A stretch of DNA of 64,000 bases from Clostridia bacterium (GTDB lineage Bacteria; Bacillota; Clostridia; TANB77; UBA1234). Positions 12,457 through 60,743 of this stretch are shown in pieces. How positions within the stretch are numbered: position 1 is the stretch's first letter; each line of letters starts with the position of its first letter. The stretch is taken from NCBI GenBank assembly GCA_017522765.1, contig JAFWYG010000001.1, positions 411,291-475,290 of the forward strand, read 5' to 3'. The position numbers and the translations under genes were made by a program. The notes under the pieces are model-generated. The model was not told the DNA's origin and ran no database searches. It saw only the letters and a list, made by a program, of their open reading frames with translations.

Positions 12457-12490
12457 GCGCCCCGCAAAATAGGTTTGCGGGGCATTTGTT
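12457..12490. terminator. bidirectional intrinsic terminator
   Basis: GCCCCGCAAA/TTTGCGGGGC hairpin with flanking A and T runs. Confidence 0.75.
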
Positions 12491-12496
12491 AGTTGT

Positions 12497-12961: not shown

Positions 12962-13138
12962 TAGAAGAATTTCCTTTCTACAGAAACGGAATTTGATTAG
13001 TGATATTTCTGCACGAATAGTATACCACAAAATTATGTAAAATGCAATGCTTAAGAGCTTAGGATTACCTGTTACAAATTTTGTGGCTTTTTATAAAATG
13101 TGATAAAATAAGGACAATATAATTTGGAGGATATGTAA

Positions 13139-13906
13139 ATGGATGAGTTAGTTTTTAAAATTGCAGATGCAGTAAAAAGATGCAGCAAGATAATGATTAA
13201 TATAAATGAAGATTTAGGAATAGAACCAAAAGAAGGAATCGGTAATTTTGTTACACGTTATGATAAAGAAGTTGAAAACAATTTAAGAGAAGAATTATTA
13301 TCAATTATTCCTAATGCTGGTTTCTTTGGTGAAGAGGGAGAAGAAAAATCAAGAATATTAGAAAACGGGTATACTTTTATTGTTGATCCAATAGATGGTA
13401 CTACTAATTTTGCAAGAGGTCTTGATATGAGTACAATTTCTGTTGGTTTGTTGAAAGATGCTAAACCTTTTATAGGCGTTTGTTATAATCCTTATAGAGA
13501 TGAAATGTTTATCGCACAAAAAGGAAAAGGCTCATATTTAAACGGAGAAAAATTACATGTGTCTAATAAAAAATTAACTGAAGGCTTAGTATATATGGGA
13601 AGCGCTGCTTACTATGAAGAGTTAAAAGACAAGACTATAGATATGGTGTCTAAATTAATCCGTGTAGCTAATGATTTTAGAAGATTTGGTTCTGCTTCAT
13701 ATGAATTGTGCTTAGTTGCTGCTGGACATGTAGAAGCTTTATATGAAATGAGATTACAACCTTGGGACATCGCTGCTGGAGTTTTAATGATTGAAGAAGC
13801 TGGGGGAAAAGTAACAACAATTGATGGTGGAGAAATTATTTATTCAGAACCAACATCTATAATAGCTTCAAACAATTGCGATGATTATTTAGGGTACTTA
13901 CAATAA
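13139..13906 (+). CDS. suhB: inositol monophosphatase family protein
   Basis: IVDPIDGTTNF and WDIAAG motifs. Confidence 0.85.
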   Translation: MDELVFKIADAVKRCSKIMININEDLGIEPKEGIGNFVTRYDKEVENNLREELLSIIPNAGFFGEEGEEKSRILENGYTFIVDPIDGTTNFARGLDMSTISVGLLKDAKPFIGVCYNPYRDEMFIAQKGKGSYLNGEKLHVSNKKLTEGLVYMGSAAYYEELKDKTIDMVSKLIRVANDFRRFGSASYELCLVAAGHVEALYEMRLQPWDIAAGVLMIEEAGGKVTTIDGGEIIYSEPTSIIASNNCDDYLGYLQ

Positions 13907-16683: not shown

Positions 16684-16927
16684 AAAAGCTCCTTCCTTCT
16701 ACATTGATTGTTGTAGATACATATATGAAAATATTTACGGACAGACAAAATGTTACACTATTTGATTTTGTTTGACAAGCTAAAAAAAATTTACGCAGTA
16801 AGAATAAATCTGAAAGTCAACTGTGGCAAGCTTTATAAATTTTTTTGAAATTAAAAAGGTTGAAAATCAAACATTGGTTATGGTATAAATATTATGTAAC
16901 AAAGAAAAAAACAAAGGAGAGATATGT

Positions 16928-25272: not shown

Positions 25273-26487
25273 ATGAAGAATAATAAAGGTATATCAATTT
25301 TAGCTTTAATAATAACTATAATTGTAATAATCATTATTACTTCTATAACAGTATATAATGGTATTGATTCTCTTGAGTCGGCGCGTCAAAAAAGCGCACA
25401 AGATACATTAAAAATAATTTGTAATTCATTAACTAAAGATGATTCGTTTTTAATGTTTGATGAAAGTGGAGATGCAGTTTTAAGTGAGCATGATTTTAAA
25501 TTTTTAGATTTAGAAAACTATTATGATGAAGAAGTTATATTTACAGTCAATAAAAAAGAAAAATTTGAAAATAATCAAAAATCAGTAACATATAAATTAA
25601 CATATAAAGAAATTCAAACGGAGAAAGAATATGAACATTCATATTCATATGATTTAAAAAATGAATTGACAAATTATAATGTTGTTTTTGATGCTGAGGC
25701 AGGGGTTAATATGCCGATTGTTTTAAGTGGAATGAAACCGCTTATGATGGATAAAGTAACACCTGTAGAAGATGTGTATTTAGATAATTGGTATTCATAT
25801 GAAAGAAAAACTGCTCAATTTGCAAGAGTTGAATATAATGGAAAAATTTATGTTTGGATACCTAGATTTGCATATAAAATACAAAACTTTTATCAAGATA
25901 AAACATATCCAGAAGTACCAAGCACAGCGATTGATATATTATTTATAAATGGTAATGCAAATTACATGACAAACGGAGAAAGAATACCGGTTGATTATAT
26001 AGTGCATCCTGCTTTTTCTGTCGGAACAAAAGAATTTGCTGGTTTATGGATTGAAGAAGAAGCATCACACCTGATTACAAATTTAAATAGTGCATCAATA
26101 ATTCAAACGGTAAAAGATACAGAAGGGAAAGTTAATTATAATTTACACATGATGACAAATATGGAAGCTGGTGCTGCAATATATTTAACATTTGCGTTTG
26201 AATGTCCTTATGAGATAGATTTAACTTCAAATGAATATGTTGCTGCTAATGTTGGAGGAGCAGGTCCATTCGATTCAGAATTTGTAACTTTATATGAAGC
26301 TAATGAAAAGGATAATATGCTACGTGGTGATGCTGTTAGAGAAACACCGTGGAAGAGAGTTTTAGGAGAATATCCAACAAGCAGTGAGTCATATATTATT
26401 AGAAGATTTGCTTCTAGTACATTTGATTTTATAAATACAAATGGCAATCAAGAAGCTACAAGTAGAAGTGTAATTGCAATAAATTAG
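25273..26487 (+). CDS. protein with prepilin-like N-terminal hydrophobic segment and a conserved unknown domain (paralog of 60744..63950)
   Basis: N-terminus MKNNKG|ISILALIITIIVIII. Shares the WIPRFAYKI, IVHPAF, GLWIEEEAS and HMMTNMEAGAAIYLTFAF blocks with the 1071-aa protein. SD AGGAGGAG. Confidence 0.5.
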   Translation: MKNNKGISILALIITIIVIIIITSITVYNGIDSLESARQKSAQDTLKIICNSLTKDDSFLMFDESGDAVLSEHDFKFLDLENYYDEEVIFTVNKKEKFENNQKSVTYKLTYKEIQTEKEYEHSYSYDLKNELTNYNVVFDAEAGVNMPIVLSGMKPLMMDKVTPVEDVYLDNWYSYERKTAQFARVEYNGKIYVWIPRFAYKIQNFYQDKTYPEVPSTAIDILFINGNANYMTNGERIPVDYIVHPAFSVGTKEFAGLWIEEEASHLITNLNSASIIQTVKDTEGKVNYNLHMMTNMEAGAAIYLTFAFECPYEIDLTSNEYVAANVGGAGPFDSEFVTLYEANEKDNMLRGDAVRETPWKRVLGEYPTSSESYIIRRFASSTFDFINTNGNQEATSRSVIAIN

Positions 26488-30475: not shown

Positions 30476-30488
30476 GGAGTTGATAAAT

Positions 30489-31730
30489 TTGAAAAAATTT
30501 ATATTCACATTAATTGCTTTACTATCAATGTCAACATATGTGTTTGCAGGAGTTACTGTTGAATTAAATGGCGAAACACTTAATTTTACAGATGCAAATG
30601 GATATACTGTTAATCCGCAAATTATAAATAATAGAACGATGGTACCTCTTAGAAAAATCTTTGAAACTTTAGGTGCTGAAATTGAATGGTTTGGTGATAC
30701 TGAAACTGTTATTGCTACTAAGGGAGATACTAAAGTTAAGTTGCAAATAAACAATCCGATTGCAGAATTGACTAAAGACGGAGTTACTCAAAAAATAACT
30801 TTAGATTCAAAACCAGTGATTGTTAATGATAGAACTTTAGTACCATTAAGATTTATTTCGGAAAGTTTAGAAAAACAAGTTGCGTGGGATCAAGATACTC
30901 AAACTGCAATAATAATTGACTATGATTATTTTATAAATGTATTTAAAACAAAGGCTCCTGTTTTTTATAATTCGTTAGTAAAAAAATCTAGTGCTCAACC
31001 AGCTACTTTGAAAATATCGAAAGCATATTATGATTTGAAGAATGCCGCATACAACAATGTATCTAACGTTACTGCGCAAATTTATAACAATTCGGAGAAT
31101 AGTAAAAAAGTAATTGTTAGTATGGATGGAAATTCAGAGTTGTTTAATGAAATAAGAAATGAAGGCTGGTCAAATTTTGATATTACAATAAATACAAACG
31201 AGAAGGGAGTATCTTGTACTTCTACATCTGCAACGATAAATCAGATGATCGGTACAGGATATAAGTCAAATGATGAACTTAATCTTATAGGTTCTGTAAA
31301 GGATTCGTGGGGAACATTTTTTAAAAACATTTTTGGTAAAGAAGAAAAAGATGTAAATTTAGCGACGTTTTATAATATAAATTCTGATTATATTAAATTT
31401 ATAAATTTATTTAAATTTTCAAATACTGCAAATTCATCAACGATAACAGCAAGCGGAATTAATTACCTGAATGCAACTTTGAAAAACTTTGATTATACCA
31501 AGTTCGATAATGTCTTGCTTGAAAACGAAATAGTACAAGTATATAATATTTTAAACAAGTTAATATTTAACTATGATGTGACTATGGATGAGCTTCTTTA
31601 TAATGCTTCTAATATAAATGTTTCGATTACAACAACAGTGGAAGGAAATTTATATAGAACTAATTTCATAGTAGAACTACTTAATGAATATAACGAAAAA
31701 GTAGTATACACGGTTAATGTAACAAGATAA
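30489..31730 (+). CDS. secreted copper-amine-oxidase N-terminal (stalk-like) domain protein
   Basis: Two NG.TL.F...P.I.N.RTMVPLR.I.E.LGA.V.W repeats. Signal peptide MKKFIFTLIALLSMSTYVFA. The TTG start at 30489 follows SD AAGGAG; the tracked start 30480 abuts the SD. Confidence 0.65.
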   Translation: MKKFIFTLIALLSMSTYVFAGVTVELNGETLNFTDANGYTVNPQIINNRTMVPLRKIFETLGAEIEWFGDTETVIATKGDTKVKLQINNPIAELTKDGVTQKITLDSKPVIVNDRTLVPLRFISESLEKQVAWDQDTQTAIIIDYDYFINVFKTKAPVFYNSLVKKSSAQPATLKISKAYYDLKNAAYNNVSNVTAQIYNNSENSKKVIVSMDGNSELFNEIRNEGWSNFDITINTNEKGVSCTSTSATINQMIGTGYKSNDELNLIGSVKDSWGTFFKNIFGKEEKDVNLATFYNINSDYIKFINLFKFSNTANSSTITASGINYLNATLKNFDYTKFDNVLLENEIVQVYNILNKLIFNYDVTMDELLYNASNINVSITTTVEGNLYRTNFIVELLNEYNEKVVYTVNVTR

Positions 31731-31745
31731 TGAGGAGGATGAAAG

Positions 31746-33098
31746 ATGAAAAGATTTATTTCAATGTTGCTAGCACTTACTATGGTATTTTCAATTGCTA
31801 GTATTTCTTTTGCTACTGATATGGTAACAAGTGCTCCAATACTAATAAGCCCAAAACCAGTAGCAATAGCTGAAAGAGGAATTTCTGTAATTCTTAACGG
31901 AGAATATGTTGATTTTACAGATGAATTAGGAAATGTCGTTGAACCACAACTTATTAACGATAGAACAATGGTTCCAATGAGAAAAATATTTGAAGTTTTT
32001 GGCGCAGATGTACAATGGGACGGTGCAACAGAAACTGTTACAGCCGTAACGGAAGAGAAAACATTAAAATTACAAATTAATAATCCTGTTGCAAAAGTAA
32101 TTTCTTTACCTTCTGGTGAAGAAACTGAAATTGTACTTGATTCTGTTCCTGTAGTAGTAGAAGGAAGAACTTTGGTTCCAGTAAGATTTATTGCTGAATC
32201 ATTAGAATTAAAAGTTGGTTGGGATGGAGATACAAGTACAGTTGTTATCATTGATCCTCTAAAAATATTTGAAATAGTAAAAGAAAAAGCACCAACATTC
32301 TATGAATACTTAACAAATGAATATATTGTTCCAGAAGCAATGACAGCAGATGCTGATATGATTTTAAATATCAAATACACAAATGGAGATAATAAAGCAT
32401 TAAATACAAATGCTAAATTTGTTATCGATGCAATGGTAAAAGGTGCTGCTAATCTATATGAAATGAATATGGATTGCAAGGTAACTGGTAAAGGTTTAAT
32501 GTATGAAGAAATTAAATCTGCAGATATGACAAATATATCTTTAGATATGGTTCTAGATACAAATGATATGATTGGATATATTAGATCATCTTTATTAGAA
32601 GAAGACATCGGAAACAAATGGTTAATGGTTGCTGAAGCTGCAGAAGAATTTGAAGATGTAATTGCAAACCCACAAGAATATACAATGGATGATGTTGTAG
32701 ATATGTTCTTTGATTCAATAACTATGACAGAAGATACATATGATGCATTAGTTGCTGGGGTTGAACTATTTTGTAGATTCGCAAGTGATGAATTCTTCAC
32801 AGTATCTGGAAGAACAACAAAGACATATACATATGAAATTACATTAGATGAATTAAATTCTTTATTACAAGAATTAGGAATGAATGCTGATTTAAAAGAT
32901 TATGCTAAATCAGGTAAAATTAAATTTTCATCAAAATACGCAAAGGGAATAAACACAGCTAGTGCATTTGAAATAGCTGCAACAATTTATAATGGTAAAG
33001 AAGAAATTGCACTTTCTTTCACAGGTGATTCTACATTAAATACAACAAAAGCTGTAAATATTAAATTGCCTGCTAAAAATGACGTTGTTGAATATTAA
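31746..33098 (+). CDS. secreted copper-amine-oxidase N-terminal domain protein (tandem paralog)
   Basis: Same repeat architecture (LINDRTMVPMRKIFEVFGADVQWD ... VVEGRTLVPVRFIAESLELKVGWD). SD GAGGAGGATG. Confidence 0.65.
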   Translation: MKRFISMLLALTMVFSIASISFATDMVTSAPILISPKPVAIAERGISVILNGEYVDFTDELGNVVEPQLINDRTMVPMRKIFEVFGADVQWDGATETVTAVTEEKTLKLQINNPVAKVISLPSGEETEIVLDSVPVVVEGRTLVPVRFIAESLELKVGWDGDTSTVVIIDPLKIFEIVKEKAPTFYEYLTNEYIVPEAMTADADMILNIKYTNGDNKALNTNAKFVIDAMVKGAANLYEMNMDCKVTGKGLMYEEIKSADMTNISLDMVLDTNDMIGYIRSSLLEEDIGNKWLMVAEAAEEFEDVIANPQEYTMDDVVDMFFDSITMTEDTYDALVAGVELFCRFASDEFFTVSGRTTKTYTYEITLDELNSLLQELGMNADLKDYAKSGKIKFSSKYAKGINTASAFEIAATIYNGKEEIALSFTGDSTLNTTKAVNIKLPAKNDVVEY

Positions 33099-34369: not shown

Positions 34370-34507
34370 AATAAGGAAAAATATGGATGCTGAGAGCGTG
34401 AAATGATATAATGTTTGATATCTTAAATAAGTGTTGAAAAATATACTAAAATGTAGTATTATACTTTCTGGAATAGTGTCTCTATAGACCGAAAAGGAGG
34501 AAATATC

Positions 34508-35077
34508 GTGAAAAATAATTTGAAAAAATATGCACTTATGATATTAGCGTTATCGCTAGTTTTTGTTTTAGGAACAAATGCCTTTGGAACAGAATCTGTG
34601 GTAACTGATGGTTCAATAGATTTAGAATTAAATGCAACAAGAGAGGATTTTACAGAACCAGAAATACAAGAAACAGAAGAACCAAAACAAGAAGTTGTTA
34701 AAGATACAACTCCTGTAATTAAAGAAGATAAAGAAACAACATCAAATGAAAATGCAAGTGATGTTGAATTAAATGATGCAAGTGAAACAATTATTAATAG
34801 CAAAGATAAAAAAGCTAGAAGAATTGCTGAACTTACAGACAAGTATAATGATAAAGTATTAGGCAACGTTGCGTATTATTTAGAGTTAGCACAAAAATAT
34901 AGTTTCCCAGTATGTTTTATTGGTTTAGCTATGGGTGCTTTTAATTTCTTAATTATAGGTAACAAAAAACTTGATAAAAAAGAGCAAGGTTTTGCTTGGA
35001 TTGTAGGATTTACAATCGGATTAGTTGTTTTTAATGTAATACCTTTACTATTTGCATTAATCGTTGCGGGTAGATAA
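34508..35077 (+). CDS. hypothetical exported/membrane protein with acidic Thr/Glu-rich region
   Basis: Signal peptide and two C-terminal TM segments. GTG start after SD AAGGAGG. Confidence 0.45.
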   Translation: MKNNLKKYALMILALSLVFVLGTNAFGTESVVTDGSIDLELNATREDFTEPEIQETEEPKQEVVKDTTPVIKEDKETTSNENASDVELNDASETIINSKDKKARRIAELTDKYNDKVLGNVAYYLELAQKYSFPVCFIGLAMGAFNFLIIGNKKLDKKEQGFAWIVGFTIGLVVFNVIPLLFALIVAGR

Positions 35078-35121: not shown

Positions 35122-38100
35122 ATGAAGGTGCTATTTGCAGTTGGATCTGAGCAAGTATCAAAGAATATAGCAGATAAGTATTACGAGAAATATGGGGAAG
35201 TACTGGAATATAAAAATGTGTTTTTCTTTAAGGCATTAATTGATGAAATAAAGAGAGACAAAACCTATGACAGAATAGTTGTTAGTGAAGAAATCGAAGA
35301 GTATGCTAGAACAGCTGATTTAGAACAAGTAGATAGAAGACTATTTAACTATATCGACCAAATAACTGATGAAACGCAAGATACAGATATTATTATCATT
35401 TGCGGAAATAGAAGAAATAAAGGCGATGCTTTTATTAATAAATTATTTAGCATAGGTATATATAACTTATTAATTGGTGATGACAGAAACGTAACACCAC
35501 TTTGCGATATCTTGAAAAAACCAAAAACAAAAAGAGAGGCAAAGCAATATTTGGGAATAGATACATCACTTATTTCAGACAGTTCTATGACGAGAGACGA
35601 TGAAGTTGATGAATACCAAATAAGAAGTATTTTAAGTTATTATGACGGAATTAAAAATCAACCTGAAAGATATGTTGAAACATTTGATAGAATTGCTGAA
35701 CAATACAGTAGATTGCAATTAATAATTATATTCAATTATTTGCCACCTGCTGTAAAAAAAGCAATTGCAGAGACTGATAGATATAGACATTTAGCGGCGC
35801 CTCCAGGGGAAGCTGCTAGAGGACCACAAGGTGCTGGTCCAGCGCAACCAAAGCAACCACAACAACCTGCGGCTCAAGCACCACAAAAAACTACTATTAC
35901 AAAACCGCAAAAAGAGAAGAAAGGATTATTTGGCAATTTTAAGAAAAATAAAAACAATCCAAATAAACCAACTTCAGAACAAGCAATGGAATCATTAGCA
36001 CAAACGGGAAGCATAGATTTAAGTACAAATACACCGCCTGCAGCACCTTCAAGCCAAGCAGCAGAGCAAGCTAAACTAGCTCAAGAAAAAGCTGAAGCAG
36101 ATAAAAGAGCTGCAGAAGAAGCTGCTAAATTAAGAGAAGAAGCAGCAAAACAACAACAACAAGAAGAATTAGCGAGAAAAGCTAGAGAAGAGCAAATGCA
36201 AAGAGAGCAACAAGCGAAAGCTCAAGCACAACAAAATCAACAAGCTCAAGTTGATTCTATACAACAAGCTAAAGAAGCTGAACAAAGACGTTTACAAGAA
36301 TTAGCTAAGCAACAACAAATGCAAAGAGAGCAAGCACAAGCTAAACAAGCGGAAGCGGATGAACAAAAACGTTTGCAAGAATTAGCTAAGCAACAACAAT
36401 TACAAAGAGATCAGGCGCAAGCTAAACAAGCGGAAGCGGACGAGCAAAAACGCTTACAAGAATTAGCTAAGCAACAACAATTACAAAGAGATCAAGCGCA
36501 AGCTAAGCAAGCGGAAGCGGACGAGCAAAAACGTTTACAAGAACTAGCTAAGCAACAACAAATGCAAAGAGATCAAGCACAAGCTAAACAAGCGGAAGCA
36601 GATGAACAAAAACGTTTGCAAGAATTAGCTAAGCAACAACAAATGCAAAGAGATCAAGCACAAGCTAAACAAGCGGAAGCGGACGAACAAAAACGTTTGC
36701 AAGAATTAGCTAAGCAACAACAGCTACAAAGAGAACAACCAACACCAAGTGGCATAAATATAAAACCAAATCCAAATGCTCCAAGAGCAGTACCGAATAA
36801 AGAGTTTGATATAGATGTGGAACCGATTGCAAAGACTCCGACAGAACCACCAAAACCTGTAGAGCCCGTTAAACCGGTTGAACCACCAAAACCAGCGGAA
36901 CCAGTTCGTCCAGTAGAGCCTCCAAAGCCTGCTGAGCCAGTAAAACCAATTGAACCGCAGGGGACTGTGGTTACTCCAGTTGTACCGGTTACACCAATAT
37001 CTAATGCAACTCCAAGTGAGCCTCAACAACCTAAATATGCACCACCATCACAACATGTTCCTACACCAGAACAATTGGCTGGAGCGAAAGTTGTTTCACC
37101 AGCGTTAAGTGCTGAAGAAGCAAGAATGAAAGAACAACAAGAAAATCTTGCTAAAGAACAACAAAAAATTAGAGAAGCTCAAGAAAAATTGGAAGAAGAA
37201 AAGAGAAAATTAAAAGAAGAACAAGAAAAATTGATGACTGCTCAAAATCAGTTAAGAGCAGATGGCATGTTGCCAAATATGCCACAATATACAACTACAG
37301 TAGGGGCTAATGGAAGACCACAAGTTCCAATGGGATCTTTTAAGAAAATGGTTGTATTTGTTGGTCCAAATAAAGCGGGAACCACTTTCGTAGTAAATGC
37401 AGTAGCACATGCAATGGCGAACGAAAAAATAATGACATCAGTTTTGGACATGACTAGAGATAAAGGTATGTGGTATATATACAGCCAACAATATAGCACA
37501 GCTATGCAAAAGAAAATGGCGAACTACATGCAAAGAATATCAGATGGAGAAGAGTTATTTATCGAAACTTCAAATCCATTTTTGAAAATTTATTCTGCGC
37601 CAGGTTCTATAAGTGATGTTAGAAGAGGATATAAACATAAAAACATTATGGATGTAGTAAGAAACAATGCAAATGTTGTTTTAGTTGATGCTGACTTTAC
37701 TACTCCGATAGATTATTTTGATCATGCGGATGAGGTATATGTAGTTCAAGACTTAGATATATTGAAAATGCCAGATACAACTTTATTCTTAAGAGAGTTG
37801 AAAAATAGAGGCATGAACATGAAAAAAATAAGAGTTATCTTAAACAAATATGTTAAGACGGCCACACTAAATTCTAAGAAACTTATTCAAGTAATGAGCA
37901 CATATTCAGACCCAGGAATGACATATATGGAATCAGAACTTTTACCATCAAAAGTAGATTTCTCTACAATACCATATAATATAAATAACTATACAAAATA
38001 TACAGAAGCACTATGTACAGGTCTTAACAACTATAAGGGTTACTCAAATGATTTCTTAGCGGTAATAAGTGAAATAGTGTCAAAGATATATCAAAATGGT

Positions 38101-38160
38101 GCACAATCAAAAATGCCACAAATGGGACAACCAAAAGGAATGAAGAAGTTTTTTGGATAA
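35122..38160 (+). CDS. large modular protein: receiver-like N-domain, coiled-coil tandem repeats, Pro-rich linker, degenerate MinD/ParA-like C-domain (TadZ/CpaE-like ends)
   Basis: 1012 aa. The C-terminus VVFVGPNKAGTTFVVN...VLDMTRD...VVLVDADFTTP has a MinD/ParA pattern but lacks the second Walker A lysine. The middle holds (KRLQELAKQQQ[LM]QR[DE]QAQAKQAEADEQ)n and (PKPxEPV)n. Confidence 0.6.
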   Translation: MKVLFAVGSEQVSKNIADKYYEKYGEVLEYKNVFFFKALIDEIKRDKTYDRIVVSEEIEEYARTADLEQVDRRLFNYIDQITDETQDTDIIIICGNRRNKGDAFINKLFSIGIYNLLIGDDRNVTPLCDILKKPKTKREAKQYLGIDTSLISDSSMTRDDEVDEYQIRSILSYYDGIKNQPERYVETFDRIAEQYSRLQLIIIFNYLPPAVKKAIAETDRYRHLAAPPGEAARGPQGAGPAQPKQPQQPAAQAPQKTTITKPQKEKKGLFGNFKKNKNNPNKPTSEQAMESLAQTGSIDLSTNTPPAAPSSQAAEQAKLAQEKAEADKRAAEEAAKLREEAAKQQQQEELARKAREEQMQREQQAKAQAQQNQQAQVDSIQQAKEAEQRRLQELAKQQQMQREQAQAKQAEADEQKRLQELAKQQQLQRDQAQAKQAEADEQKRLQELAKQQQLQRDQAQAKQAEADEQKRLQELAKQQQMQRDQAQAKQAEADEQKRLQELAKQQQMQRDQAQAKQAEADEQKRLQELAKQQQLQREQPTPSGINIKPNPNAPRAVPNKEFDIDVEPIAKTPTEPPKPVEPVKPVEPPKPAEPVRPVEPPKPAEPVKPIEPQGTVVTPVVPVTPISNATPSEPQQPKYAPPSQHVPTPEQLAGAKVVSPALSAEEARMKEQQENLAKEQQKIREAQEKLEEEKRKLKEEQEKLMTAQNQLRADGMLPNMPQYTTTVGANGRPQVPMGSFKKMVVFVGPNKAGTTFVVNAVAHAMANEKIMTSVLDMTRDKGMWYIYSQQYSTAMQKKMANYMQRISDGEELFIETSNPFLKIYSAPGSISDVRRGYKHKNIMDVVRNNANVVLVDADFTTPIDYFDHADEVYVVQDLDILKMPDTTLFLRELKNRGMNMKKIRVILNKYVKTATLNSKKLIQVMSTYSDPGMTYMESELLPSKVDFSTIPYNINNYTKYTEALCTGLNNYKGYSNDFLAVISEIVSKIYQNGAQSKMPQMGQPKGMKKFFG
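36283..36745 (+). repeat. in-frame 81-bp tandem repeat, about 5.5 copies
   Basis: The unit gaacaaaaacgtttgcaagaattagctaagcaacaacaa[at]t[gt]caaagaga[gt]caagc[ag]caagctaaacaagcggaagcgga[ct] is repeated with only synonymous or conservative changes. Confidence 0.8.
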
Positions 38161-38173: not shown

Positions 38174-38434
38174 ATGGATTCACAAAACACAATATTCTTT
38201 AAAGTTGAAAAAGAAAAGAAAAGCAATTCAAAACAAATTTTAAGACAAGTATATGAAGCTCTTGTAGAAAAAGGATATGATCCAATCAATCAAATTGTTG
38301 GTTATATACTTTCAGGAGATCCAACATATATCACAAGTCATAAAGATTCTAGAAGTCTTATCAGACAATTAGAAAGAGATGAATTGTTAGAAGAATTAGT
38401 AAAAGAATATATTGGAGTAAACGATGAAAAATAG
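38174..38434 (+). CDS. ireB: IreB-family regulatory phosphoprotein (UPF0297)
   Basis: [53 protein letters not shown] matches the UPF0297 consensus. Confidence 0.8.
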
Positions 38435-38843
38435 AATAATGGGTATTGATTATGGAGATGTGAGAACCGGTATCGCGATATCAGATCTTCTTGGAATAAC
38501 TGCACAAGGTTTAGAGTCAATCAATCACGGAGAAAGTGAAAAGAAACTTTTAAATCGAATTGCAGAAATAATAAAAGAATATCAAATAGAAAAAATCGTA
38601 ATAGGTTATCCTCTTAATATGAACAATACTAAAGGTCCTAGAGCAGAGAAAACAGACAAATTTATAGAAAAGTTAAAAAATAGATTTGGATTAGAAGTTA
38701 TAAAAATGGATGAACGTCTAACAACAGTTTCTGCACACAGGACAATGACAACACTTTCTGTTTCAAAAGACAGAAAGAAAAACATAGTAGATACTATATC
38801 TGCAGAATATATTTTGCAGATGTATCTAGATAGAAATGCTTAA
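38424..38843 (+). CDS. ruvX: Holliday junction resolvase-like YqgF/RuvX
   Basis: [16 protein letters not shown]-terminus and conserved gene order ireB-ruvX-DUF1292. Confidence 0.82.
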
Positions 38844-38875: not shown

Positions 38876-39184
38876 ATGAGTGACGAGAATGTAAACTTAG
38901 AAGGACTAGAGGACTTCGATGAATTAGACAATAAAATCATCTTAAATGATGAAGATGGAAACGAAATTGAATTCGAATTCCTAGATGTTGTTGAACTAGA
39001 CGACAAAGAATATGTAGTACTATTACCTGTAGCAGAAGCTGAAAAAGGTGAAGTAGTAATCTTTAGAATTGAAGGAGAAGGCGATGAAGAAAGCTATGTA
39101 AGTCTTGATGACGAAGCAGAAGCTGAAAGAGTTTTCGAAGCATTCAAAGAAAAGACAAAAGACGAATTTGATTTCGCTGACTAG
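38876..39184 (+). CDS. DUF1292/UPF0473 acidic protein (YrzB-like)
   Basis: Acidic 102-aa protein with DEDGNEIEFEFLDVVELDDKEYVVLLP, in the conserved position after ruvX. Confidence 0.7.
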   Translation: MSDENVNLEGLEDFDELDNKIILNDEDGNEIEFEFLDVVELDDKEYVVLLPVAEAEKGEVVIFRIEGEGDEESYVSLDDEAEAERVFEAFKEKTKDEFDFAD

Positions 39185-39301
39185 TAATAAAAATGGGACA
39201 TCGTAAGATGTCTCTTTTTTTATCCAAAAACGTTGAAAAATCTGGAAGAGTATAATATAATTCACATTATGTAAAACGGGCAAAAAAGGAGATAATAACT
39301 A

Positions 39302-43431: not shown

Positions 43432-43467
43432 AAAAAGATTAACAATTTATTTGTTAATCTTTTTTTA
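43432..43467 (+). terminator. intrinsic terminator after spo0A
   Basis: AAAGATTAACAA/TTGTTAATCTTT hairpin followed by T6. Confidence 0.75.
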
Positions 43468-43510
43468 TGCTATAATGATTGTAGATAATGAGATACAAAG
43501 GAGAAAATCT

Positions 43511-44209
43511 ATGTACGAACAAGAATATAAAGAATTAAAAAGTCAAAGAGTACCAGGATATATAATGATTGGAATTGCAATTTTTGTATTAGTGTTTTTT
43601 GGTTCTTTTTGTTTTGGTGGAATGATAAGAAAAATAGGTAAAAATGAAACTGTAGAAGCTGATAGAGTGACTATAGAGATTAGTTACGGAGATGAAGATT
43701 CTTCAGATACATATAAACCAACGTATTATTATACTGTTGGTCGAAAAAAATACACATATACTCCATGGTATTATACCAATATCGGTGTAGAAGATATGAA
43801 AGACACAACTTTATATTATAATTCTTCAGATCCAAGTAAAGTAGTACCTGAATATCAAACTAAATTTTATTGGTCTTCTGGCTTTGTAATTGTTTTTGCA
43901 GGTATATTTGCATGTATTGGTTTAGGAATTTTGATAGGAACAATAAAAAAAGAAAGAAAATTAAAACATTTACAAGAACACGGAACTCTTTTTAGAAACT
44001 TACCTTGTAGAGTGGTCCAAACTAATACATATGTAAATGAAGAACCTGTTATAAAAATCGAAATAGATTATGTGGGGCCTGATGGAGAACTTATAGTTTT
44101 TAGTCAAAAGAAAATTGGAGATTATGACGAAGAGGTGCAAACAGCTGATTTATTAGTAGATCAAAATGATTTAAGTATGTATTACATAGACTTTAATATA
44201 GAACAATAA
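43511..44209 (+). CDS. DUF3592-like membrane protein with extra C-terminal domain
   Basis: TM, then a Tyr-rich beta region (KPTYYYTVGRKKYTYTPWYY), then a TM and a roughly 90-aa tail. SD AAAGGAGAAAAT. Confidence 0.45.
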   Translation: MYEQEYKELKSQRVPGYIMIGIAIFVLVFFGSFCFGGMIRKIGKNETVEADRVTIEISYGDEDSSDTYKPTYYYTVGRKKYTYTPWYYTNIGVEDMKDTTLYYNSSDPSKVVPEYQTKFYWSSGFVIVFAGIFACIGLGILIGTIKKERKLKHLQEHGTLFRNLPCRVVQTNTYVNEEPVIKIEIDYVGPDGELIVFSQKKIGDYDEEVQTADLLVDQNDLSMYYIDFNIEQ

Positions 44210-44250
44210 AAAAATCCCTCTTGATATTAGTTCAAGAGGGATTTAATTTT
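44210..44250. terminator. bidirectional terminator shared by convergent paralogs
   Basis: AAATCCCTCTTGA/TCAAGAGGGATTT hairpin. Confidence 0.75.
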
Positions 44251-44941
44251 ACCAATTTAAATCTACTATATATATTGATGGATTTTCAGAATCAAATAAT
44301 ACATCTGCATATAGCGTGCCTCGTTCTTCAGGATAATCATATACAAGTTTGCTAAATGTAATTGATTCGCCCGTTGGTGAAATATATTCTATTTCTGCTT
44401 TCATTATTGGTTTATCGTCAAAAAATTTATTAGTTGGCATCAAAATACAAGGTTGATCTTTTAATAAAGTACCGTTAGTTTCTAAATGCTTTAATTTTTT
44501 CTTTATGTTTTTTCCATAAGCAACACAAATATTTGACGCGGTAATAATCAGAGCAAAAAAGAAAAGTATTCCCCAGTGTTCGGTACGAAAAATAGTTTCG
44601 TATTCAGCTACCACATTAGTAGGATTACTAGGATTATAGTATAACTTTTTTGTCATAATTTCTTCGCTAAAAACCGTTGTTGGAAAAAGAGGTGTGTATT
44701 CATAGTTCATGCCATCTATTTCATAGTAATATGTAGGATGATAAGTTGGATAACCATTAATATCATATTTAGTATTAAGATCTATTTTTGTTGCTATTAT
44801 AATCTCGTTTTTTCCGTATTTTCTAAATAATCCGTTACTGAAAATAAAACCGTATACAACTACTAATAATATTGCGGTTATGCTTAAACCATAACCGACA
44901 ATTATAAATCTTTCCGCTTTAGAACGTTCTATATTTTCCAT
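44249..44941 (-). CDS. DUF3592-like membrane protein, paralog of 43511..44209
   Basis: Same architecture (YPTYHPTYYYEIDGMNYEYTP ... second TM ... C-terminal domain). The KLKHL-ETNGTLLKDQPC versus KLKHLQEHGTLFRNLPC blocks align. Confidence 0.45.
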   Translation of the reverse strand: MENIERSKAERFIIVGYGLSITAILLVVVYGFIFSNGLFRKYGKNEIIIATKIDLNTKYDINGYPTYHPTYYYEIDGMNYEYTPLFPTTVFSEEIMTKKLYYNPSNPTNVVAEYETIFRTEHWGILFFFALIITASNICVAYGKNIKKKLKHLETNGTLLKDQPCILMPTNKFFDDKPIMKAEIEYISPTGESITFSKLVYDYPEERGTLYADVLFDSENPSIYIVDLNW

Positions 44942-45065
44942 GTATGAACTCCTTATATAAATTATATATCTTAGAACTATTGTAACATTAATTTTTATAA
45001 TATAAAACGTAGAATTTTTAATAAAAAATTAGCCCCCTTGAACATGTGTCTCAAGGGGGCTATAT

Positions 45066-46844
45066 TTACGCTGCGATGAAGGATTTCAGATTGTCCGTGC
45101 GGAGGCTCTTAATTCTTTCGGGCGTACGATTTTTTGCACCGCAAGGAATATTTCCTTCGATGATGTAACAGTAAAGGGCGATAAGCAACCCGTTGCTTTG
45201 CATCTGTTTTTCAGAAGCACGAGAGCGTTTGAGACTGAGCAGCTTTTCTTGTACCTTTGAGATATCGATGTCCTTAAGGTTAAAGTATGCACTGCCAAAA
45301 TCAGAGTCAAATCCGATTGCTTTTTTGAAAGCGGTCTCATCGTCGTTTTCACTGTATTCAGCGATAGCATCGCCGAAGTAAGGAATCCAGAATCCCTGAA
45401 TCATTTCAGCTGTTTGCTGAGAGTTCTCAATTTTGATACCGTTATTAGTAGCAAACTTGAGAATGGTTTCTTCAGGAGAAAGTTTGTGTTCGATGCCGAA
45501 ATATTCTTTTTCGAATGCAGCATCAATGCCCATGACGTTTGCAAGATTTGCAGCATCCTCATCGGACTTTTCAGAGAACCAGTAAACAGCAATCATTGAT
45601 CTAATACTTTGTCTGAGAGCATCGTCGTCATAACTGTAAAACTCGGCCAGAGTATCGATTGTTTCAAAGCACTGCTTGAGGGGCATATTTGCATTGATGT
45701 AACCGCGCTGAATTGCGAAGAGTGTCAATGCATAGTATGTCTGCCATTCAAATTCATGCTCGGGAATCTGCTCGCCGGTTTCGATGTTATATGCCATTCC
45801 TTTGAAAACAAGATTCTCATCGGCCATATATTTGAAGAGTTCGAAATAGCAGTCACGTTCTCTTTCGCCGGAGATTTGGAATGTTCCCAGGATCTCGTCC
45901 GTGAGTTCGTAGTGCTTTACATTTCTGCTTGCGAGAAGGCCGTTTTCAAAAGTTCTGACAAAATGAGCTCTTTCATCGAATTCGGAAAGCGGATGAAGCA
46001 ACATCATAAGCATTGCAATCATAAAGTTTTGGAATTTGCTTTCCGTGAATGCTTCTTTAACTGCAAATGTCGTATATGACGTGTAGTAGTGGTCTGCATG
46101 AATTTGTGTCTTTATGGCACGGTAGTCACGGAACTTGTAGTTGCTCTTGTATGTGATAGGATATTCAACATGATTGAGCTCAGAAAGTTCAATGACTTTT
46201 TTGCGAAGCTTAGGTTCAAGCTGTTCCAGTGCAAATTGGATTGCGCCATAACGCACATGTACAGTCTTTCCCATAAGGGTATAGAGCAAAAATGTTTCCT
46301 CGGGGAAGAGATAATGCTTATGCAGATTGTCCCATTTTGTGTAGTTGATGGTGAGCTGACCATTGTTTAACCAAAGCTCTTCTACGAAAAATTCTCCAGC
46401 AGAGAAAAATGTGAAGAAGGACCGGATGTATTTTGCTTTAGTCAGGTCGTCCATATCCTCGGGAGCATCACACAGATGAGTTGCCATCATAGAGATGAGG
46501 TGTTTGAAACCGTGCAAATAATACTGTGCGTTTTCAAGTGTGCGAAGACATGCGAGATCATTTTCGAGAATCTTGGGATTCAGAGGGCGAGCAAATTTTA
46601 CACCATAACCGCAGTGCCGCAGAATGGCTTGAAGTCTTTTTTCGCCGATAACATTTGTGAATACGGGCAGGGCTTCATTGTGAAGCAGGGGCAGATCGAT
46701 ACAGTAGATGTGCGAAAAACCAGGCATTTGAGTGCTGGGTAAAATGAATTCCTCGTAGTCCGGTACGAGAAGCTTCCAAAATTTGATGAGTGCCTTGGTA
46801 TCGCTGTTGCCTAGTGTGGGATCCTTGATGATTGTAAGTTCCAT
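45066..46844 (-). CDS. large hypothetical cytoplasmic protein (592 aa), GC-rich island
   Basis: Long uninterrupted ORF. SD AAGGAAAGGA precedes ATG 46844. No recognised motif. About 45-50% GC versus AT-rich flanks. Confidence 0.5.
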   Translation of the reverse strand: MELTIIKDPTLGNSDTKALIKFWKLLVPDYEEFILPSTQMPGFSHIYCIDLPLLHNEALPVFTNVIGEKRLQAILRHCGYGVKFARPLNPKILENDLACLRTLENAQYYLHGFKHLISMMATHLCDAPEDMDDLTKAKYIRSFFTFFSAGEFFVEELWLNNGQLTINYTKWDNLHKHYLFPEETFLLYTLMGKTVHVRYGAIQFALEQLEPKLRKKVIELSELNHVEYPITYKSNYKFRDYRAIKTQIHADHYYTSYTTFAVKEAFTESKFQNFMIAMLMMLLHPLSEFDERAHFVRTFENGLLASRNVKHYELTDEILGTFQISGERERDCYFELFKYMADENLVFKGMAYNIETGEQIPEHEFEWQTYYALTLFAIQRGYINANMPLKQCFETIDTLAEFYSYDDDALRQSIRSMIAVYWFSEKSDEDAANLANVMGIDAAFEKEYFGIEHKLSPEETILKFATNNGIKIENSQQTAEMIQGFWIPYFGDAIAEYSENDDETAFKKAIGFDSDFGSAYFNLKDIDISKVQEKLLSLKRSRASEKQMQSNGLLIALYCYIIEGNIPCGAKNRTPERIKSLRTDNLKSFIAA

Positions 46845-47009
46845 AGCGTTCCTTTCCTTAAAATAGTATATGTGGTCTAAGCCTCGTAATTTTATCATAT
46901 TATGTCTACTTTTTCAATAAAATTGGTAAAAAATGTGAGCTTTTAGCCGTTTTTATTGTAAAAAACGGGGATATAATATACAATATTTTCGAGAAAAGGA
47001 GGACGGACT

Positions 47010-47966: not shown

Positions 47967-49460
47967 ATGAATAAGAAACCTTTTATAATAATTGTTATTT
48001 CGTTGGTTGTTTTTGCAATAGTATCAGGATTGATAACATATGGAATGATACAAAATACAATCGACAAAAAAATAAATGAAAGTCAAAGTGGTGAAATTTT
48101 GGTTTCATCAGGAGAAAAAGAGGAAGTTTCTAAAAGTTATTTAGGTATAGATGTAAACGGAACTTTTGATGAAAATTCAATAACTTGGATCGAGCAAGCA
48201 TATCAAGAAGGCGATACAGAAATTAAATATTATAAAATTAGTGGACTTATTAACAAAGAAGTTGAAAAGAGTGTAAATGATAAATTAAAAGATGCAGCGT
48301 TTTCAAGTTTTAACGCAAATAAAATTAATGATATAAGATATACTGCATATCAAAATATACATTCTAGTTTTTCTAATGTAATAAGTGTACGAACAAGTAT
48401 CACAACCTCTAAGCTTTCAGGACAAGCTGATTATAAATATGAAACGAAAGATATAAATTTAGAACTTATTAGTGGCGAAGAAATTAGTTTTAGTGATTTG
48501 TTTGTAGATAAAAATTCCATGGCGCAAATAATGGCTGCAGAGTTTTACGAAGATGAAGCCTGGCAGAAACAATGGGATAAAGAAACAGATATGTGGGATG
48601 GCGGATATGAATTTGATCAAGAACTATGGGATGCACCAATTTTAAATGTTGATGAAGATGAAGTCGTAAAGAAAGTAAATAGAATTAGAAAACTAAACAC
48701 AAATTCGTTTGTCTTTTCAACTCAATATGTTTCTGCTGAAATGGAATTAGGTAGTGGAGATTCTGAATATGTATATTTACAATTCGGTAGCATGCCATCT
48801 GCGATAGCAATTTATGATAAGTACTTAACTGAGGAAAAAATCTATGAAGATGAATCTTTAGGTCGTAAAAATGTTATAAATTTATCATATCTTAATATGG
48901 ATCCAATTGTGGTTTATAGTGCTTATGAAAATGATAAAACAACAAATTATTTTGCGGATATTCAAGTTTATTCAGATATGTATGACGAACCATATGAAAA
49001 TGAAGAAAGAGCAAAAGAACATATAATTAAATTGGCTAAAAAAGAAGTTGTTGAACTAGAAAGAAAAGCTCAATCAGAGCCAGACAAATTCTTTGTATAT
49101 ACAAAGGTTTATAGAATTTATGATTCACCAGGAGAAGTGTTCGCTGTCTCTGAAAACTTTAGTGAATATTTTACTGATATATCAAATAAAGAAAAATTAT
49201 ATCAAGAAGTTGTTAATGCATATACATATGAAAATTTTGAAATGTATGGAATAGGTAATATATACATTGATTTAGAAAACGAGGAAAATGCATATATATC
49301 AGGTGAAAGAAATTTTGTAGATAGAAATTACAGTTTCAAAACAATGAAAGAAATAAAAACTCTAGAAGATTTATTCGTTGAAGGTTTTGATTATAAACCA
49401 GCTTTAAAAGATGCATTTTATAGTAAGGTTTGGATACATAAAAGACGGAGACTTGCTTGA
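47967..49460 (+). CDS. hypothetical membrane-anchored protein, probably frameshifted near its 3' end (continues in another frame to 49665)
   Basis: N-terminal TM and a large acidic extracytoplasmic region. ORF 49411..49665 is open from 49405 in the +1 frame across an A4 run (cataaaagacgg). Confidence 0.45.
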   Translation: MNKKPFIIIVISLVVFAIVSGLITYGMIQNTIDKKINESQSGEILVSSGEKEEVSKSYLGIDVNGTFDENSITWIEQAYQEGDTEIKYYKISGLINKEVEKSVNDKLKDAAFSSFNANKINDIRYTAYQNIHSSFSNVISVRTSITTSKLSGQADYKYETKDINLELISGEEISFSDLFVDKNSMAQIMAAEFYEDEAWQKQWDKETDMWDGGYEFDQELWDAPILNVDEDEVVKKVNRIRKLNTNSFVFSTQYVSAEMELGSGDSEYVYLQFGSMPSAIAIYDKYLTEEKIYEDESLGRKNVINLSYLNMDPIVVYSAYENDKTTNYFADIQVYSDMYDEPYENEERAKEHIIKLAKKEVVELERKAQSEPDKFFVYTKVYRIYDSPGEVFAVSENFSEYFTDISNKEKLYQEVVNAYTYENFEMYGIGNIYIDLENEENAYISGERNFVDRNYSFKTMKEIKTLEDLFVEGFDYKPALKDAFYSKVWIHKRRRLA

Positions 49461-55590: not shown

Positions 55591-55597
55591 TCACCTT

Positions 55598-55840
55598 GTA
55601 ATGTGATGAAGAAGAGGAGTACGATTACAGCGCTTTTAGAAGAGAAAGATACCTTGGCTGAAAGTATCTAAAGTAAACTAATCAGAAGACACTTTGGAGC
55701 AGGCTTATGAAGAAAAAGTAAGTCCGTAATATATGCGTTAAATTTCTAATGAGTATAAAATTGGGTGGTACCACGTACAAAGACTATACGTCCCATGAGT
55801 TCTAGATTGAGCTCATGGGACTTTTTGTTGTTTTAAGATA
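55598..55840 (+). ncRNA. T-box riboswitch leader (probable Asp GAC specifier) of aspS
   Basis: AGAGA-like stem I region. T-box sequence AAATTGGGTGGTACCACG at 55768-55785. Terminator ACGTCCCATGAGTTC...GAGCTCATGGGAC followed by T5. Confidence 0.75.
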
Positions 55841-55899: not shown

Positions 55900-57657
55900 A
55901 TGAACGAGTACAGAACACACTATTGCCACGAACTAAGATTAGAAAACGTTGGCGAAGAAGTAAGACTTGCAGGATGGGTACAAACAGTTAGAGACTTAGG
56001 GTCTATGATGTTTGTTGACTTAAGAGACCACTATGGTGTTACACAACTTGCAATTCAAGAAGAAGCTCACTTAGAACAAATGAGAAAAGTAACAACAGAA
56101 AGTACAATTTCTATTACAGGTAAAGTTTGCGAAAGAAGTAACAAAAATCCTAACATCGCAACAGGAGATATTGAAGTTATTCCAAGCGAAATTAGAGTTA
56201 CGGGAAAAGCTAAAAACGTATTACCTTTCGAAATTAATATCGGACAAGATGTAAGAGAAGATTTAAGATTAGAATATAGATTTTTAGATTTAAGAAATGA
56301 AAAAATTCATAACAACATAGTATTTAGAGCACAAGTTATGAAAACAATTAGAGAAATTATGGATGGAATGAGATTCGTAGAAATTCAAACTCCAATCCTA
56401 ACAAGTTCATCACCAGAGGGTGCTAGAGACTTCTTAGTTCCAAGTAGATTGCATCCAGGGGAGTTTTACGCATTACCACAAGCACCACAACAATTTAAAC
56501 AATTGTTAATGATGTCTGGTTTTGATAGATATTATCAAATAGCTCCATGTTTTAGAGATGAAGACCCAAGAGCCGATAGATCACCAGGTGAGTTCTATCA
56601 ATTAGACCTTGAAATGTCTTTTGCTACACAAGAAGATGTTTTAGGTGTTGTTGAAAATGTTGTATTAAACACATTTAGAAGACATACAAAATGGAAAGTT
56701 AGTGAAGATGGAATTTTAAGAATCCCATATAGAGAAGCTATGAAAAAATATGGTAGCGACAAACCTGACCTTAGAAACCCATTAGTTCTTCAAGAAGTAA
56801 CTAAATTATTTGAAGGCACAGAATTTAAGGCGTTCCAAGATAAACATATAATCGCAATCGTAGTTCCAGGTGCTGCAAAAGAAACAAGAAAATTCTTTGA
56901 TAGCATGGGAGAGTTTGCTCAAGTTGAAGGTGGAGCAAAAGGTTTAGCATATGTAAAAGTAGAAGAAGGAAATACACTTGCTGGTGGTATTGCAAAATTC
57001 TTTACACCAGAAATGACAGAAGAATTCTTAAAAACTTATGCTAAAGAAAATGATGCTGTATTCTTCATCGCAGAAGAAGAGGAAGAAAGAGCTCAAAAAC
57101 TTGCTGGCTTAATTAGAATTGAACTTGGTAAGAGATTAGATTTACTAGAAAAAGATTGCTATAAATTCTGTTGGATAGTAGACTTCCCAATGTATGAAAA
57201 AGATGATGAAGGTAAAGTAGAATTTAACCATAACCCATTCTCAATGCCACAAGGTGGTTTAGAAGCATTAAATACAAAAGATCCTTTAGATATTTATGCT
57301 TATCAATATGACATGGTATGTAATGGTTATGAACTTGCATCTGGTGCTGTTAGAAATCATGATGTAGAAATCATGGAAAGAGCATTTGAAATTGCGGGTT
57401 ATACAAGAGAACATGTTGAAGCTAAGTTCCCAGCATTATTTAATGCATTCCAATATGGAGCTCCTCCACATGCTGGATGTGCACCAGGACTTGATAGAAT
57501 CGTTATGCTTCTTGCACAAGAAGACAGCATAAGAGAAGTAATTGCATTCCCTAAAAACAGTAAAGCAAGAGATTTGTTAATGGGAGCACCTTCTCCTGTA
57601 TATCCAAATCAATTAAAAGATGTACATATAAAATTAGATATTGAAGAGAAAAAATAA
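55900..57657 (+). CDS. aspS: aspartate--tRNA ligase
   Basis: 585 aa with class II aaRS motifs (FRDEDPRADRSP, GLDRIVMLL). SD AGGAGGAAT. Confidence 0.95.
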   Translation: MNEYRTHYCHELRLENVGEEVRLAGWVQTVRDLGSMMFVDLRDHYGVTQLAIQEEAHLEQMRKVTTESTISITGKVCERSNKNPNIATGDIEVIPSEIRVTGKAKNVLPFEINIGQDVREDLRLEYRFLDLRNEKIHNNIVFRAQVMKTIREIMDGMRFVEIQTPILTSSSPEGARDFLVPSRLHPGEFYALPQAPQQFKQLLMMSGFDRYYQIAPCFRDEDPRADRSPGEFYQLDLEMSFATQEDVLGVVENVVLNTFRRHTKWKVSEDGILRIPYREAMKKYGSDKPDLRNPLVLQEVTKLFEGTEFKAFQDKHIIAIVVPGAAKETRKFFDSMGEFAQVEGGAKGLAYVKVEEGNTLAGGIAKFFTPEMTEEFLKTYAKENDAVFFIAEEEEERAQKLAGLIRIELGKRLDLLEKDCYKFCWIVDFPMYEKDDEGKVEFNHNPFSMPQGGLEALNTKDPLDIYAYQYDMVCNGYELASGAVRNHDVEIMERAFEIAGYTREHVEAKFPALFNAFQYGAPPHAGCAPGLDRIVMLLAQEDSIREVIAFPKNSKARDLLMGAPSPVYPNQLKDVHIKLDIEEKK

Positions 57658-60725: not shown

Positions 60726-60743
60726 ATAATAGAGGTGAAGTGG

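Follow-up and report, generated by a model that had tools for sequence, protein, structure and literature searches.

The 64,000-nucleotide stretch of Clostridia bacterium DNA analyzed here (assembly GCA_017522765.1, contig JAFWYG010000001.1; the window, in what follows) carries on its forward strand, at 35122..38160, a gene for a protein of 1012 amino acids (aa). The protein represents an unnamed, conserved and lineage-restricted family, with a receiver-like fold at the N-terminus, a ParA/MinD-type fold at the C-terminus, and a long spacer between them. We tentatively read it, with slightly less than even confidence, as a membrane-associated, probably non-hydrolyzing positional scaffold built on the plan of TadZ, which would work with a small protein of two transmembrane (TM) helices. 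Prokaryotic cells use ParA/MinD ATPases as their general positioning machinery, and new cargos continue to emerge from subfamilies as these are discovered.

The open reading frame (ORF) had been reported in an initial annotation made from the letters of the DNA, and translation of the forward strand confirms it. That annotation had also named an assembly artefact with collapsed repeats as a possible objection. This artefact is ruled out, as the identical protein is present over all 1012 aa on four public contigs, two of these 0.2-1 Mb long.

Folds at the Two Ends of the Protein

AlphaFold2 models of both ends were built with deepened family alignments. The C-terminal domain (aa 742-993; 37345..38100, +) was modeled with a predicted local distance difference test score (pLDDT) of 86.8 and a predicted template-modeling score (pTM) of 0.86, and it has the three-dimensional fold of ParA and MinD. 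When this model was compared with the PDB by Foldseek, the top 50 matches were all of the ParA, MinD, FlhG, FleN, Soj, McdA, BcsQ, CooC, HypB or NifH type, with a probability of 1.0, TM-scores of 0.55-0.75 and 11-18 % identity. They include Chlorobium ParA (3ea0), MinD (1hyq, with a TM-score of 0.75, 4v03 and 3q9l), FlhG (4rz3) and McdA (6non and 6nop). The MinD/ParA fold first proposed from motifs is therefore upheld by predicted structure, but not by profile search. Pfam and NCBIfam, applied to the whole protein and to the separated ends, gave nothing significant, CbiA, AAA_31, ParA and MipZ included. At the sequence level, the Pfam/CDD-type scan which the initial annotation had put forward as its own check speaks against it, as neither a MinD/ParA nor a Response_reg match was found. 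HMMER profiles of both domains likewise recovered nothing from the PDB (177,635 distinct sequences) with a cutoff as lax as E<=10. A few divergent members of the family reach Pfam CbiA or MipZ at E~1e-3, below threshold (CbiA E 0.43 for locus L026), which may serve as a weak bridge in agreement with the fold.

The N-terminal domain (aa 1-120; 35122..35481, +) adopts, in a model of pLDDT 86.8, the CheY-like (beta-alpha)5 receiver fold, with strands E2-6, E29-32, E51-55, E89-93 and E115-117 in b-a-b order. Its most compact Foldseek matches include the atypical receiver domains (ARDs) of CpaE/TadZ (4myr, 4n0p, 4dad and 4dn6; TM-score ~0.7, root-mean-square deviation 3.8 A), and the receivers of DesR, ComE and RcsB are also among the matches. 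At the fold level, the domain thus corresponds to the ARD of TadZ/CpaE. A receiver- or flavodoxin-like alpha/beta domain had been suggested for these ~120 aa; the model sustains the receiver fold, whereas Pfam Response_reg did not match the domain and hhalign gave no alignment of it with CheY.

The residues of a receiver phosphorylation site are missing from this domain. An invariant E56, and not Asp, follows beta3; V7-G/S8 follows beta1 with no acidic pair; C94 follows beta4; and no Lys follows beta5. These positions were mapped through secondary structure, using the strand ends of the model and the alignments. The N-terminal domain is therefore a pseudo-receiver. It leads into a conserved helical subdomain (aa 124-228; 35491..35805, +), with predicted helices at 124-132, 137-144 and 164-225, and this subdomain carries the invariant basic motif P134-x-x-K137-x-x-A140-K141-x-Y143.

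A Non-Canonical P-Loop

The motifs that had drawn attention to the C-terminal domain, namely VVFVGPNKAGTTF, LDMTRD and VVLVDADFTTP, are present in the protein and conserved across the family. The P-loop reads G748-P-N-K751-A-G753-T754-T755-F (37363..37389, +), is invariant or nearly so in alignments of 39 and of 129 sequences, and has the family consensus G-x-x-K-x-G-T-[ST]-F. In the numbering of the domain, to which 734 is added for protein numbering, the (near-)invariant residues of both alignments are G14, K17, G19, T20, [ST]21, F22, N25, D42 and T44, followed by D122, D124, T127, Q142, D145 and N174.

T20 and D42 are 22 residues apart, as are K16 and D38 of E. coli MinD, and the same register was given by hhalign at a score that is not significant. 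In this register, P15 stands in place of the signature lysine K11 of MinD, T20 in place of the P-loop lysine K16, T21 at T17, D42 at the switch-I residue D38, T44 (T778) in place of the catalytic Asp D40, and D124 at the Walker B residue D120. The invariant K17 falls at the position of MinD G13, and it is here that helix 1 starts in the AlphaFold2 model. With P15 and T20 at the two lysine positions, the loop departs from the deviant Walker A motif KGGxxGK[ST], and no register of it fits GxxxxGK[ST], KGGxxGK[ST] or K/RGGXGXS/T. The Walker A motif had been described as lacking its second lysine; it is indeed degenerate, but both MinD lysines are gone and not the second alone. As both MinD-type lysines and the catalytic Asp are lost, the ATP-hydrolysis cycle is probably not run, and we infer that canonical ATP hydrolysis has been given up in this family. 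That two Walker lysines have gone and one invariant lysine stands elsewhere in the loop makes the family a natural experiment on the requirements of a P-loop.

The same residues can be read in another way, as the P-loop of an ATPase of ParA/MinD type that has been re-wired but is still active. In such an enzyme, K751 (K17), displaced three residues upstream, would replace the lost lysine, and the protein would cycle dynamically on the membrane or the nucleoid to position its cargo. The (near-)invariance of K17, G19, T20/[ST]21, D42 and D124 in 129 sequences would not be expected of a dead pocket, and the start of helix 1 at K17 is the usual place of a Walker lysine. McdA, whose signature lysine is supplied from outside the Walker A motif, is also among the fold matches (6non, 6nop), and a lysine that has moved would have its precedent there. 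However, G-x-x-K falls three residues short of a loop that could wrap the phosphate in the canonical way, an invariant Thr has replaced the catalytic Asp (D40 of MinD), and the protein lacks the signature lysine on which the ATP-sandwich dimer depends. No MinE-, ParB- or McdB-type partner is evident among the conserved neighbors. We consider an active ATPase of this kind unlikely.

A Lineage-Restricted Family in Gut Clostridia

A first homologue search returned 16 relatives of the C-terminal domain, all of them seemingly short. An architecture of the C-terminal domain alone was considered and rejected, as these genes are broken by gaps of N inside the repeats. In L001, L003 and L006, the gene is cut in two by a run of N among the repeats, and the N-terminal domain, starting with MKVLFAVG, is found on the fragment upstream. 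An intact orthologue of 997 aa is present in a Logan assembly.

The alignment of the N-terminal domain matched at least 390 stretches in a collection of one genome per species, a count which may be inflated by the use of two patterns per gene. The best 80 of these loci all belong to metagenome-assembled genomes (MAGs) of uncultured gut Clostridia, including Candidatus Scatovivens and Candidatus Merdicola, the latter placed by NCBI in Clostridia incertae sedis. A scripted survey of loci yielded 72 ORFs with both domains, of 717-1150 aa. With the profile of the C-terminal domain, 718 clusters at 90 % identity were retrieved, none with a Pfam domain or with a name beyond "hypothetical". An exhaustive HMMER scan of 1.84 billion representatives gave 447 matches (clusters at 50 % identity), and all 150 among the matches listed are members of the family. 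The family therefore stands apart in sequence from the very large ParA/MinD superfamily.

The architecture had been said to match nothing familiar. It is not a one-off, since a conserved family shares it, but it is truly unnamed, with all members annotated as "hypothetical", and a literature search found no description of a ParA/MinD-like protein with AT-hooks or with this architecture. The gene belongs to the conserved core of a large group of Clostridia from human and animal guts which have not been cultured. It has no annotation at present, and naming it would improve the annotation of hundreds of MAGs.

Locus and Small Upstream Protein

Directly upstream of the 1012-aa gene lies a gene for a small protein of 189 aa (34508..35077, +), and a homologue of it stands directly upstream of the large gene at every surveyed locus, often just 4 nt away (44 nt in the window). 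The consensus of 81 sequences shows a signal-peptide-like N-terminus and then an acidic, variable stretch; after these comes a conserved hairpin, in which a charged G-x-r-K-L-D-x-x-x-k-G loop connects two hydrophobic helices. Pfam gave nothing significant for the small protein (LptF_LptG at E 2.9e-4 was below the cutoff). Nor does it match the T4SS_pilin profile for type IV secretion pilins of the VirB2/TrbC kind, with PF18895 at E 0.15 and 12.6 bits against a cutoff of 26.6, and the likeness to these pilins is one of topology only, a signal peptide and two hydrophobic helices.

Downstream of the large gene, and also on the forward strand, are ireB (38174..38434; Pfam IreB E 8e-39), which starts after 13 nt, ruvX (38424..38843; Pfam RuvX E 1.6e-44) and a DUF1292 gene (38876..39184; Pfam DUF1292 E 3.7e-17). 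These strong matches bear out the position directly 5' of ireB-ruvX-DUF1292 that had been assigned to the gene. The block is found downstream at every surveyed locus. It follows the large gene directly in the window's clade, whereas members of the wider clade have, between the large gene and ireB, a gene with a TM segment and a degenerate GGDEF domain that the window's clade lacks.

A promoter-like site TTGAAA-17-TATTAT (34434..34462, +; 10/12 matches in a consensus scan) lies 5' of the small gene as a candidate operon start; it is the best in the interval, in a region where the number of promoter-like sites is not above that of shuffles. A hairpin resembling an intrinsic terminator (39195..39224, +), with an 8-bp stem of 4 GC pairs followed by TTTTTTT, is the only strong plus-strand terminator in the interval scanned and the candidate end of the unit. 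Together these sites suggest a five-gene transcription unit, from the small gene through DUF1292.

The gene had been said to occupy the place where alaS usually precedes ireB, a remark that has no bearing on function. Neither alaS nor any tad or min gene is present among the annotated genes of the window or in the locus of Ca. Merdicola, where the neighbors are housekeeping and sporulation genes (BacA, DpaA, valS, a SpoIIAB-like protein and a sigma factor). The locus belongs to the core genome with stable synteny, and it is neither a mobile element nor a defense island; PADLOC gave no match of the protein to a known defense system. A mobile element or conjugation module, which the pilin-like topology of the small protein had brought to mind, was rejected on the same grounds of core-genome position and synteny.

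The intervening gene of the wider clade is seen in L026 at 12276-13400, with an equivalent gene of ~1.1 kb in L019-L089. It encodes an N-terminal TM helix and a degenerate GGDEF domain (Pfam GGDEF E 1e-9), in which RYMGPKF replaces GGDEF. Coupling to GGDEF proteins or to a cyclic di-GMP riboswitch was considered for the window and rejected, as the GGDEF-like neighbor is degenerate and confined to the wider clade.

Farther out, an S11 D,D-carboxypeptidase gene precedes the 189-aa ORF in the window (Pfam) and keeps this direct upstream place across the window's clade, and spo0A is located 4.5 kb downstream (Pfam), by which the source organism is a spore-forming member of the Clostridia. The protein could be a morphogenetic scaffold specific to sporulation, paired with the small membrane protein as SpoIVA is with SpoVM; its place would be the polar septum or the forespore, and its role would not lie in vegetative positioning. 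The proximity of spo0A and of the carboxypeptidase gene would suit this role, as would CotJA/B/C in L008 and DpaA, a SpoIIAB-like anti-sigma factor and a sigma factor in L026. This closeness to sporulation genes is, however, loose and dependent on the clade, whereas the strictly conserved neighbors ireB-ruvX-DUF1292 are housekeeping genes, and we regard a dedicated sporulation role as quite unlikely.

The S11 gene itself is split into two overlapping ORFs (148 + 257 aa) in L003, at 4802-5990, and also in L004, L005, L014 and L015. The split occurs in one subclade and represents either a conserved frameshift or a pseudogene. In the window, the S11 gene is directly preceded by two tandem paralogous genes (30480-33098, +) of 416 and 450 aa, both of which encode a Cu_amine_oxidN1 ("copper amine oxidase-like") domain at the N-terminus.

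A Spacer That Is Exchanged between Clades

A long spacer between the two end domains, as it had been described, is a constant feature. The insert measures 215-630 aa across the family, and its sequence is not conserved, whereas the ends are. In the window protein, one part of it (aa 331-545; 36112..36756, +) is a helical region rich in Q, A, E, K and R. This region holds an 81-bp tandem repeat (36280..36738, +) of 5.7 copies with 92 % matches, found by Tandem Repeats Finder (TRF), and five near-identical protein units of 27 aa start at aa 414, 441, 468, 495 and 522. The repeats had been taken for a coiled coil. They are real, but they do not form a heptad coiled coil: only 11 % of aa 331-545 is hydrophobic and 83 % is E/K/R/Q/A/D, there is no periodicity of 3.5 or 7 residues, and the period-7 power is 0.03 versus 0.10 in shuffles. 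Spacers of the ER/K-type single alpha-helix are known, and the region is like them in composition and in having no hydrophobic seam; its helicity and rigidity would follow by analogy. It is likely a rigid spacer of this single-alpha-helix type.

The next part is a Pro-rich segment (aa 553-665; 36778..37116, +; 27 % Pro), and the (PKPxEPV)n linker noted earlier was recovered within it at aa ~575-612, with a TRF period of 18 at 36843-36893. The (EP/KP)n spacer of the TonB type is a Pro-rich rod, which the periodic P-x-P-x-E-P-V of aa ~575-612 resembles and by analogy may form as well. A further K/E-rich periodicity was detected by TRF at 37129-37233.

Directly before the C-terminal domain comes a leucine-heptad helix (aa 662-711; 37105..37254, +). 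It has eight exact heptads (L662, M669, L676, I683, L690, L697, L704 and L711), with a heptad power of 1.20 versus 0.15 in shuffles, none of 5000 being as high, and it is kept in L011-L015. This helix would be an element of self-association, possibly replacing the lost ATP-sandwich dimerization.

Repeat units are homogenized inside single genomes and yet vary among near-identical strains. In the 98 %-identical relative L010 (11000-11306, against 36280-36738 in the window), the repeat unit is different, RLAEMAKQQQLQRDQQQAKQIEADEQK in one and RLQELAKQQQMQRDQAQAKQAEADEQK in the other, which indicates recent intragenic expansion or concerted evolution. The contig of L010 breaks inside the repeat array, and most public assemblies break or hold N-gaps there. 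The linkers of the window's clade are rich in A, E, K, Q and R, and that of L017 has a textbook ER/K composition (E29 K15 A15 R12 %). Those of the wider clade are acidic and of low complexity, with repeated LPGF/LPGL-acidic motifs. Such wholesale exchange of an inter-domain spacer between conserved ends is a clean case in which to study how selection acts on linker physics.

The AT-hook core RGRP occurs in 59/65 of the wider-clade linkers, usually twice and typically as KRGRGRPRKN. Such hooks could make the protein a nucleoid-membrane tether, similar in function to Noc or RacA, with the AT-hooks on the chromosome and a MinD-like tail on the membrane. Besides the paired hooks, the conserved C-terminal tail and the low G+C content of the genome would be in keeping with this role. 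However, the core R-G-R-P is absent from the window protein and from all seven of its closest clade-mates, so tethering can be no more than a side property of some members and does not account for the protein in the window. As an explanation of the gene, we judge it very unlikely.

Membrane-Targeting-Like Motifs

The membrane-targeting sequence of E. coli MinD is KGFLKRLFGG (PMC5471200), and that of B. subtilis MinD is KGMMAKIKSFFG (PMC13537761). The window protein has a similar basic and aromatic tail, PKGMKKFFG (38131..38157, +), and its clade-mates end in RRFFG, RKFFG, GGFFG or RGLFG. An internal motif of the same character, KEKKGLFGNFKKNK (aa 264-277; 35911..35952, +), also resembles the MinD sequence, with equivalents KKKGFFASFRKAK in L006 and GGIFGVFRRHK in L001. 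Proteins of the wider clade terminate instead in a conserved helix, FSxxMNxTLNxMKxxY, which is kept despite a spacer before it of up to ~200 residues rich in N and Q. Its retention across such spacers would be typical of a tethered helix that binds a membrane or a partner. The hydrophobic moment of the helix (muH) is 0.39, a value reached by 4 % of shuffles, on a measure that separated true MinD sequences poorly. With these motifs, binding of the protein to the membrane is plausible.

Comparison with Known Systems

The initial annotation had called the two ends TadZ/CpaE-like. This is correct for the folds but not for membership, where P-loop, locus and sequence similarity all fail. TadZ/CpaE likewise joins an N-terminal atypical receiver to a C-terminal ParA/MinD-fold domain with a degenerate Walker A motif, and is likewise proposed to be a localization hub and not a motor. 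In our family, by contrast, the helical subdomain and 215-630 aa of spacer are inserted between the two domains, and a MinD-like tail is present which TadZ/CpaE does not have. The P-loop of TadZ has the Walker-A-like consensus K/RGGXGXS/T (bioRxiv 10.64898/2026.07.08.737194), whereas that of the family is G-x-x-K-x-G-T-[ST], or G-P-N-K-A-G-T-T in the window protein. A TadZ-like ARD has also been found fused to an AAA+ ATPase in type VII secretion (T7SSf) loci (PMC11217815), and the ARD is therefore a reusable module.

We consider it highly improbable that the protein is a genuine TadZ/CpaE orthologue with the task of positioning a Tad/Flp pilus. The plan of ARD and ParA/MinD-like domain is the same, and the second Walker lysine is missing from TadZ as well. 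However, the genes annotated in the window and in the flanks of related loci include no tadA/cpaF, tadB/C or flp, the profiles of both domains show no similarity to TadZ/CpaE chains among the PDB sequences at E<=10, the P-loop misfits the TadZ consensus, and the TadZ structure 3FKQ is not among the top 50 fold matches.

With MinD, the family shares the fold. In the register given above, it would also retain the equivalents of T17, the switch-I Asp (D38) and the Walker B Asp, and its basic and aromatic C-terminal tail resembles that of MinD. It differs from MinD in the replacement of K11, K16 and the catalytic D40, in the absence of minC or minE neighbors, and in its fusion to a pseudo-receiver through a giant spacer. 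BcsQ, FlhG/FleN and McdA are static or atypical members of the ParA/MinD family which position envelope machines or have non-canonical arrangements of the lysines. They share the fold of the C-terminal domain, but none has this domain architecture, a spacer with AT-hooks or a single alpha-helix, or this P-loop. The family would work like an organizer of the ParA/MinD/TadZ type while it fails the membership tests for both MinD and TadZ, and it combines the TadZ plan with a MinD-like tail outside any pilus locus.

Proposed Mechanism

A spacer or scaffold protein with a localization module had been suggested at the outset, and with folds at both ends and a long spacer this is still the most economical reading. 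In the positional scaffold that we favor, the C-terminal domain, without a hydrolysis cycle, would be a module for interactions that are either static or gated by a ligand. The eight-heptad leucine zipper of the window's clade would keep the protein constitutively self-associated, standing in for the ATP-sandwich dimer. The tail PKGMKKFFG and the internal KKGLFGNFKK would hold the protein at the cytoplasmic membrane, probably beside the co-transcribed small protein with two TM helices. The pseudo-receiver and helical subdomain may be the end that binds a cargo or landmark, as has been proposed for the ARD of TadZ. The spacer would set the reach or distance, here through ~215 aa of charged helix and then a Pro-rich rod; in most relatives, it would be an acidic disordered chain whose two AT-hooks could also hold AT-rich chromosomal DNA.

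Several points weigh against this scaffold. The strict conservation of K751 (K17), T754/T755, D776 and D858 speaks for a pocket that continues to bind some ligand, perhaps in a nucleotide-dependent cycle. The second core position of the heptads is mostly Gln, and the zipper may therefore be weak. The FSxxMNxTLNxMKxxY helix is modestly amphipathic and could bind protein rather than lipid. As the window protein carries no AT-hook, DNA tethering would not be a conserved core function. Additionally, the promoter and terminator of the putative transcription unit are consensus matches, and the hosts are uncultured.

A bolder form of the proposal, to which we assign a low probability, is that, in a lineage of uncultured, spore-forming gut Clostridia, a MinD/TadZ-type ATPase has been turned into a nucleotide-independent molecular ruler. 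A dimerized pseudo-ATPase would be anchored to the membrane next to the small two-TM protein dedicated to it, and the pseudo-receiver would dock a landmark or cargo. If this is true, the exchangeable spacer (AT-hook chain, ER/K helix or Pro rod) would set the distance, and in most species would capture the chromosome. It would amount to an undescribed system of positioning or chromosome anchoring, transcribed together with ireB-ruvX.

Other Features of the Window

The window contains further genes at a distance from this locus. A second very long ORF of 1071 aa (60735-63950, +) has no Pfam match at E<=1e-5. Just after spo0A, at 43451-46898, three consecutive ORFs of 252 aa (+), 230 aa (-) and 610 aa (-) are also without a Pfam match, as are the ORFs at 25273-26487 (404 aa) and 47967-49460 (497 aa). 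Two long overlapping ORFs occupy opposite strands at 15028-16707, one of 551 aa (-) with a partial match to glycogen phosphorylase and the other of 509 aa (+). The Rfam scan placed no RNA element near the 1012-aa gene; its sole match, at 55.6 kb, is a T-box leader (55597-55798, +; RF00230, 104.7 bits), which precedes a gene resembling that of aspartyl-tRNA synthetase (55900-57657).

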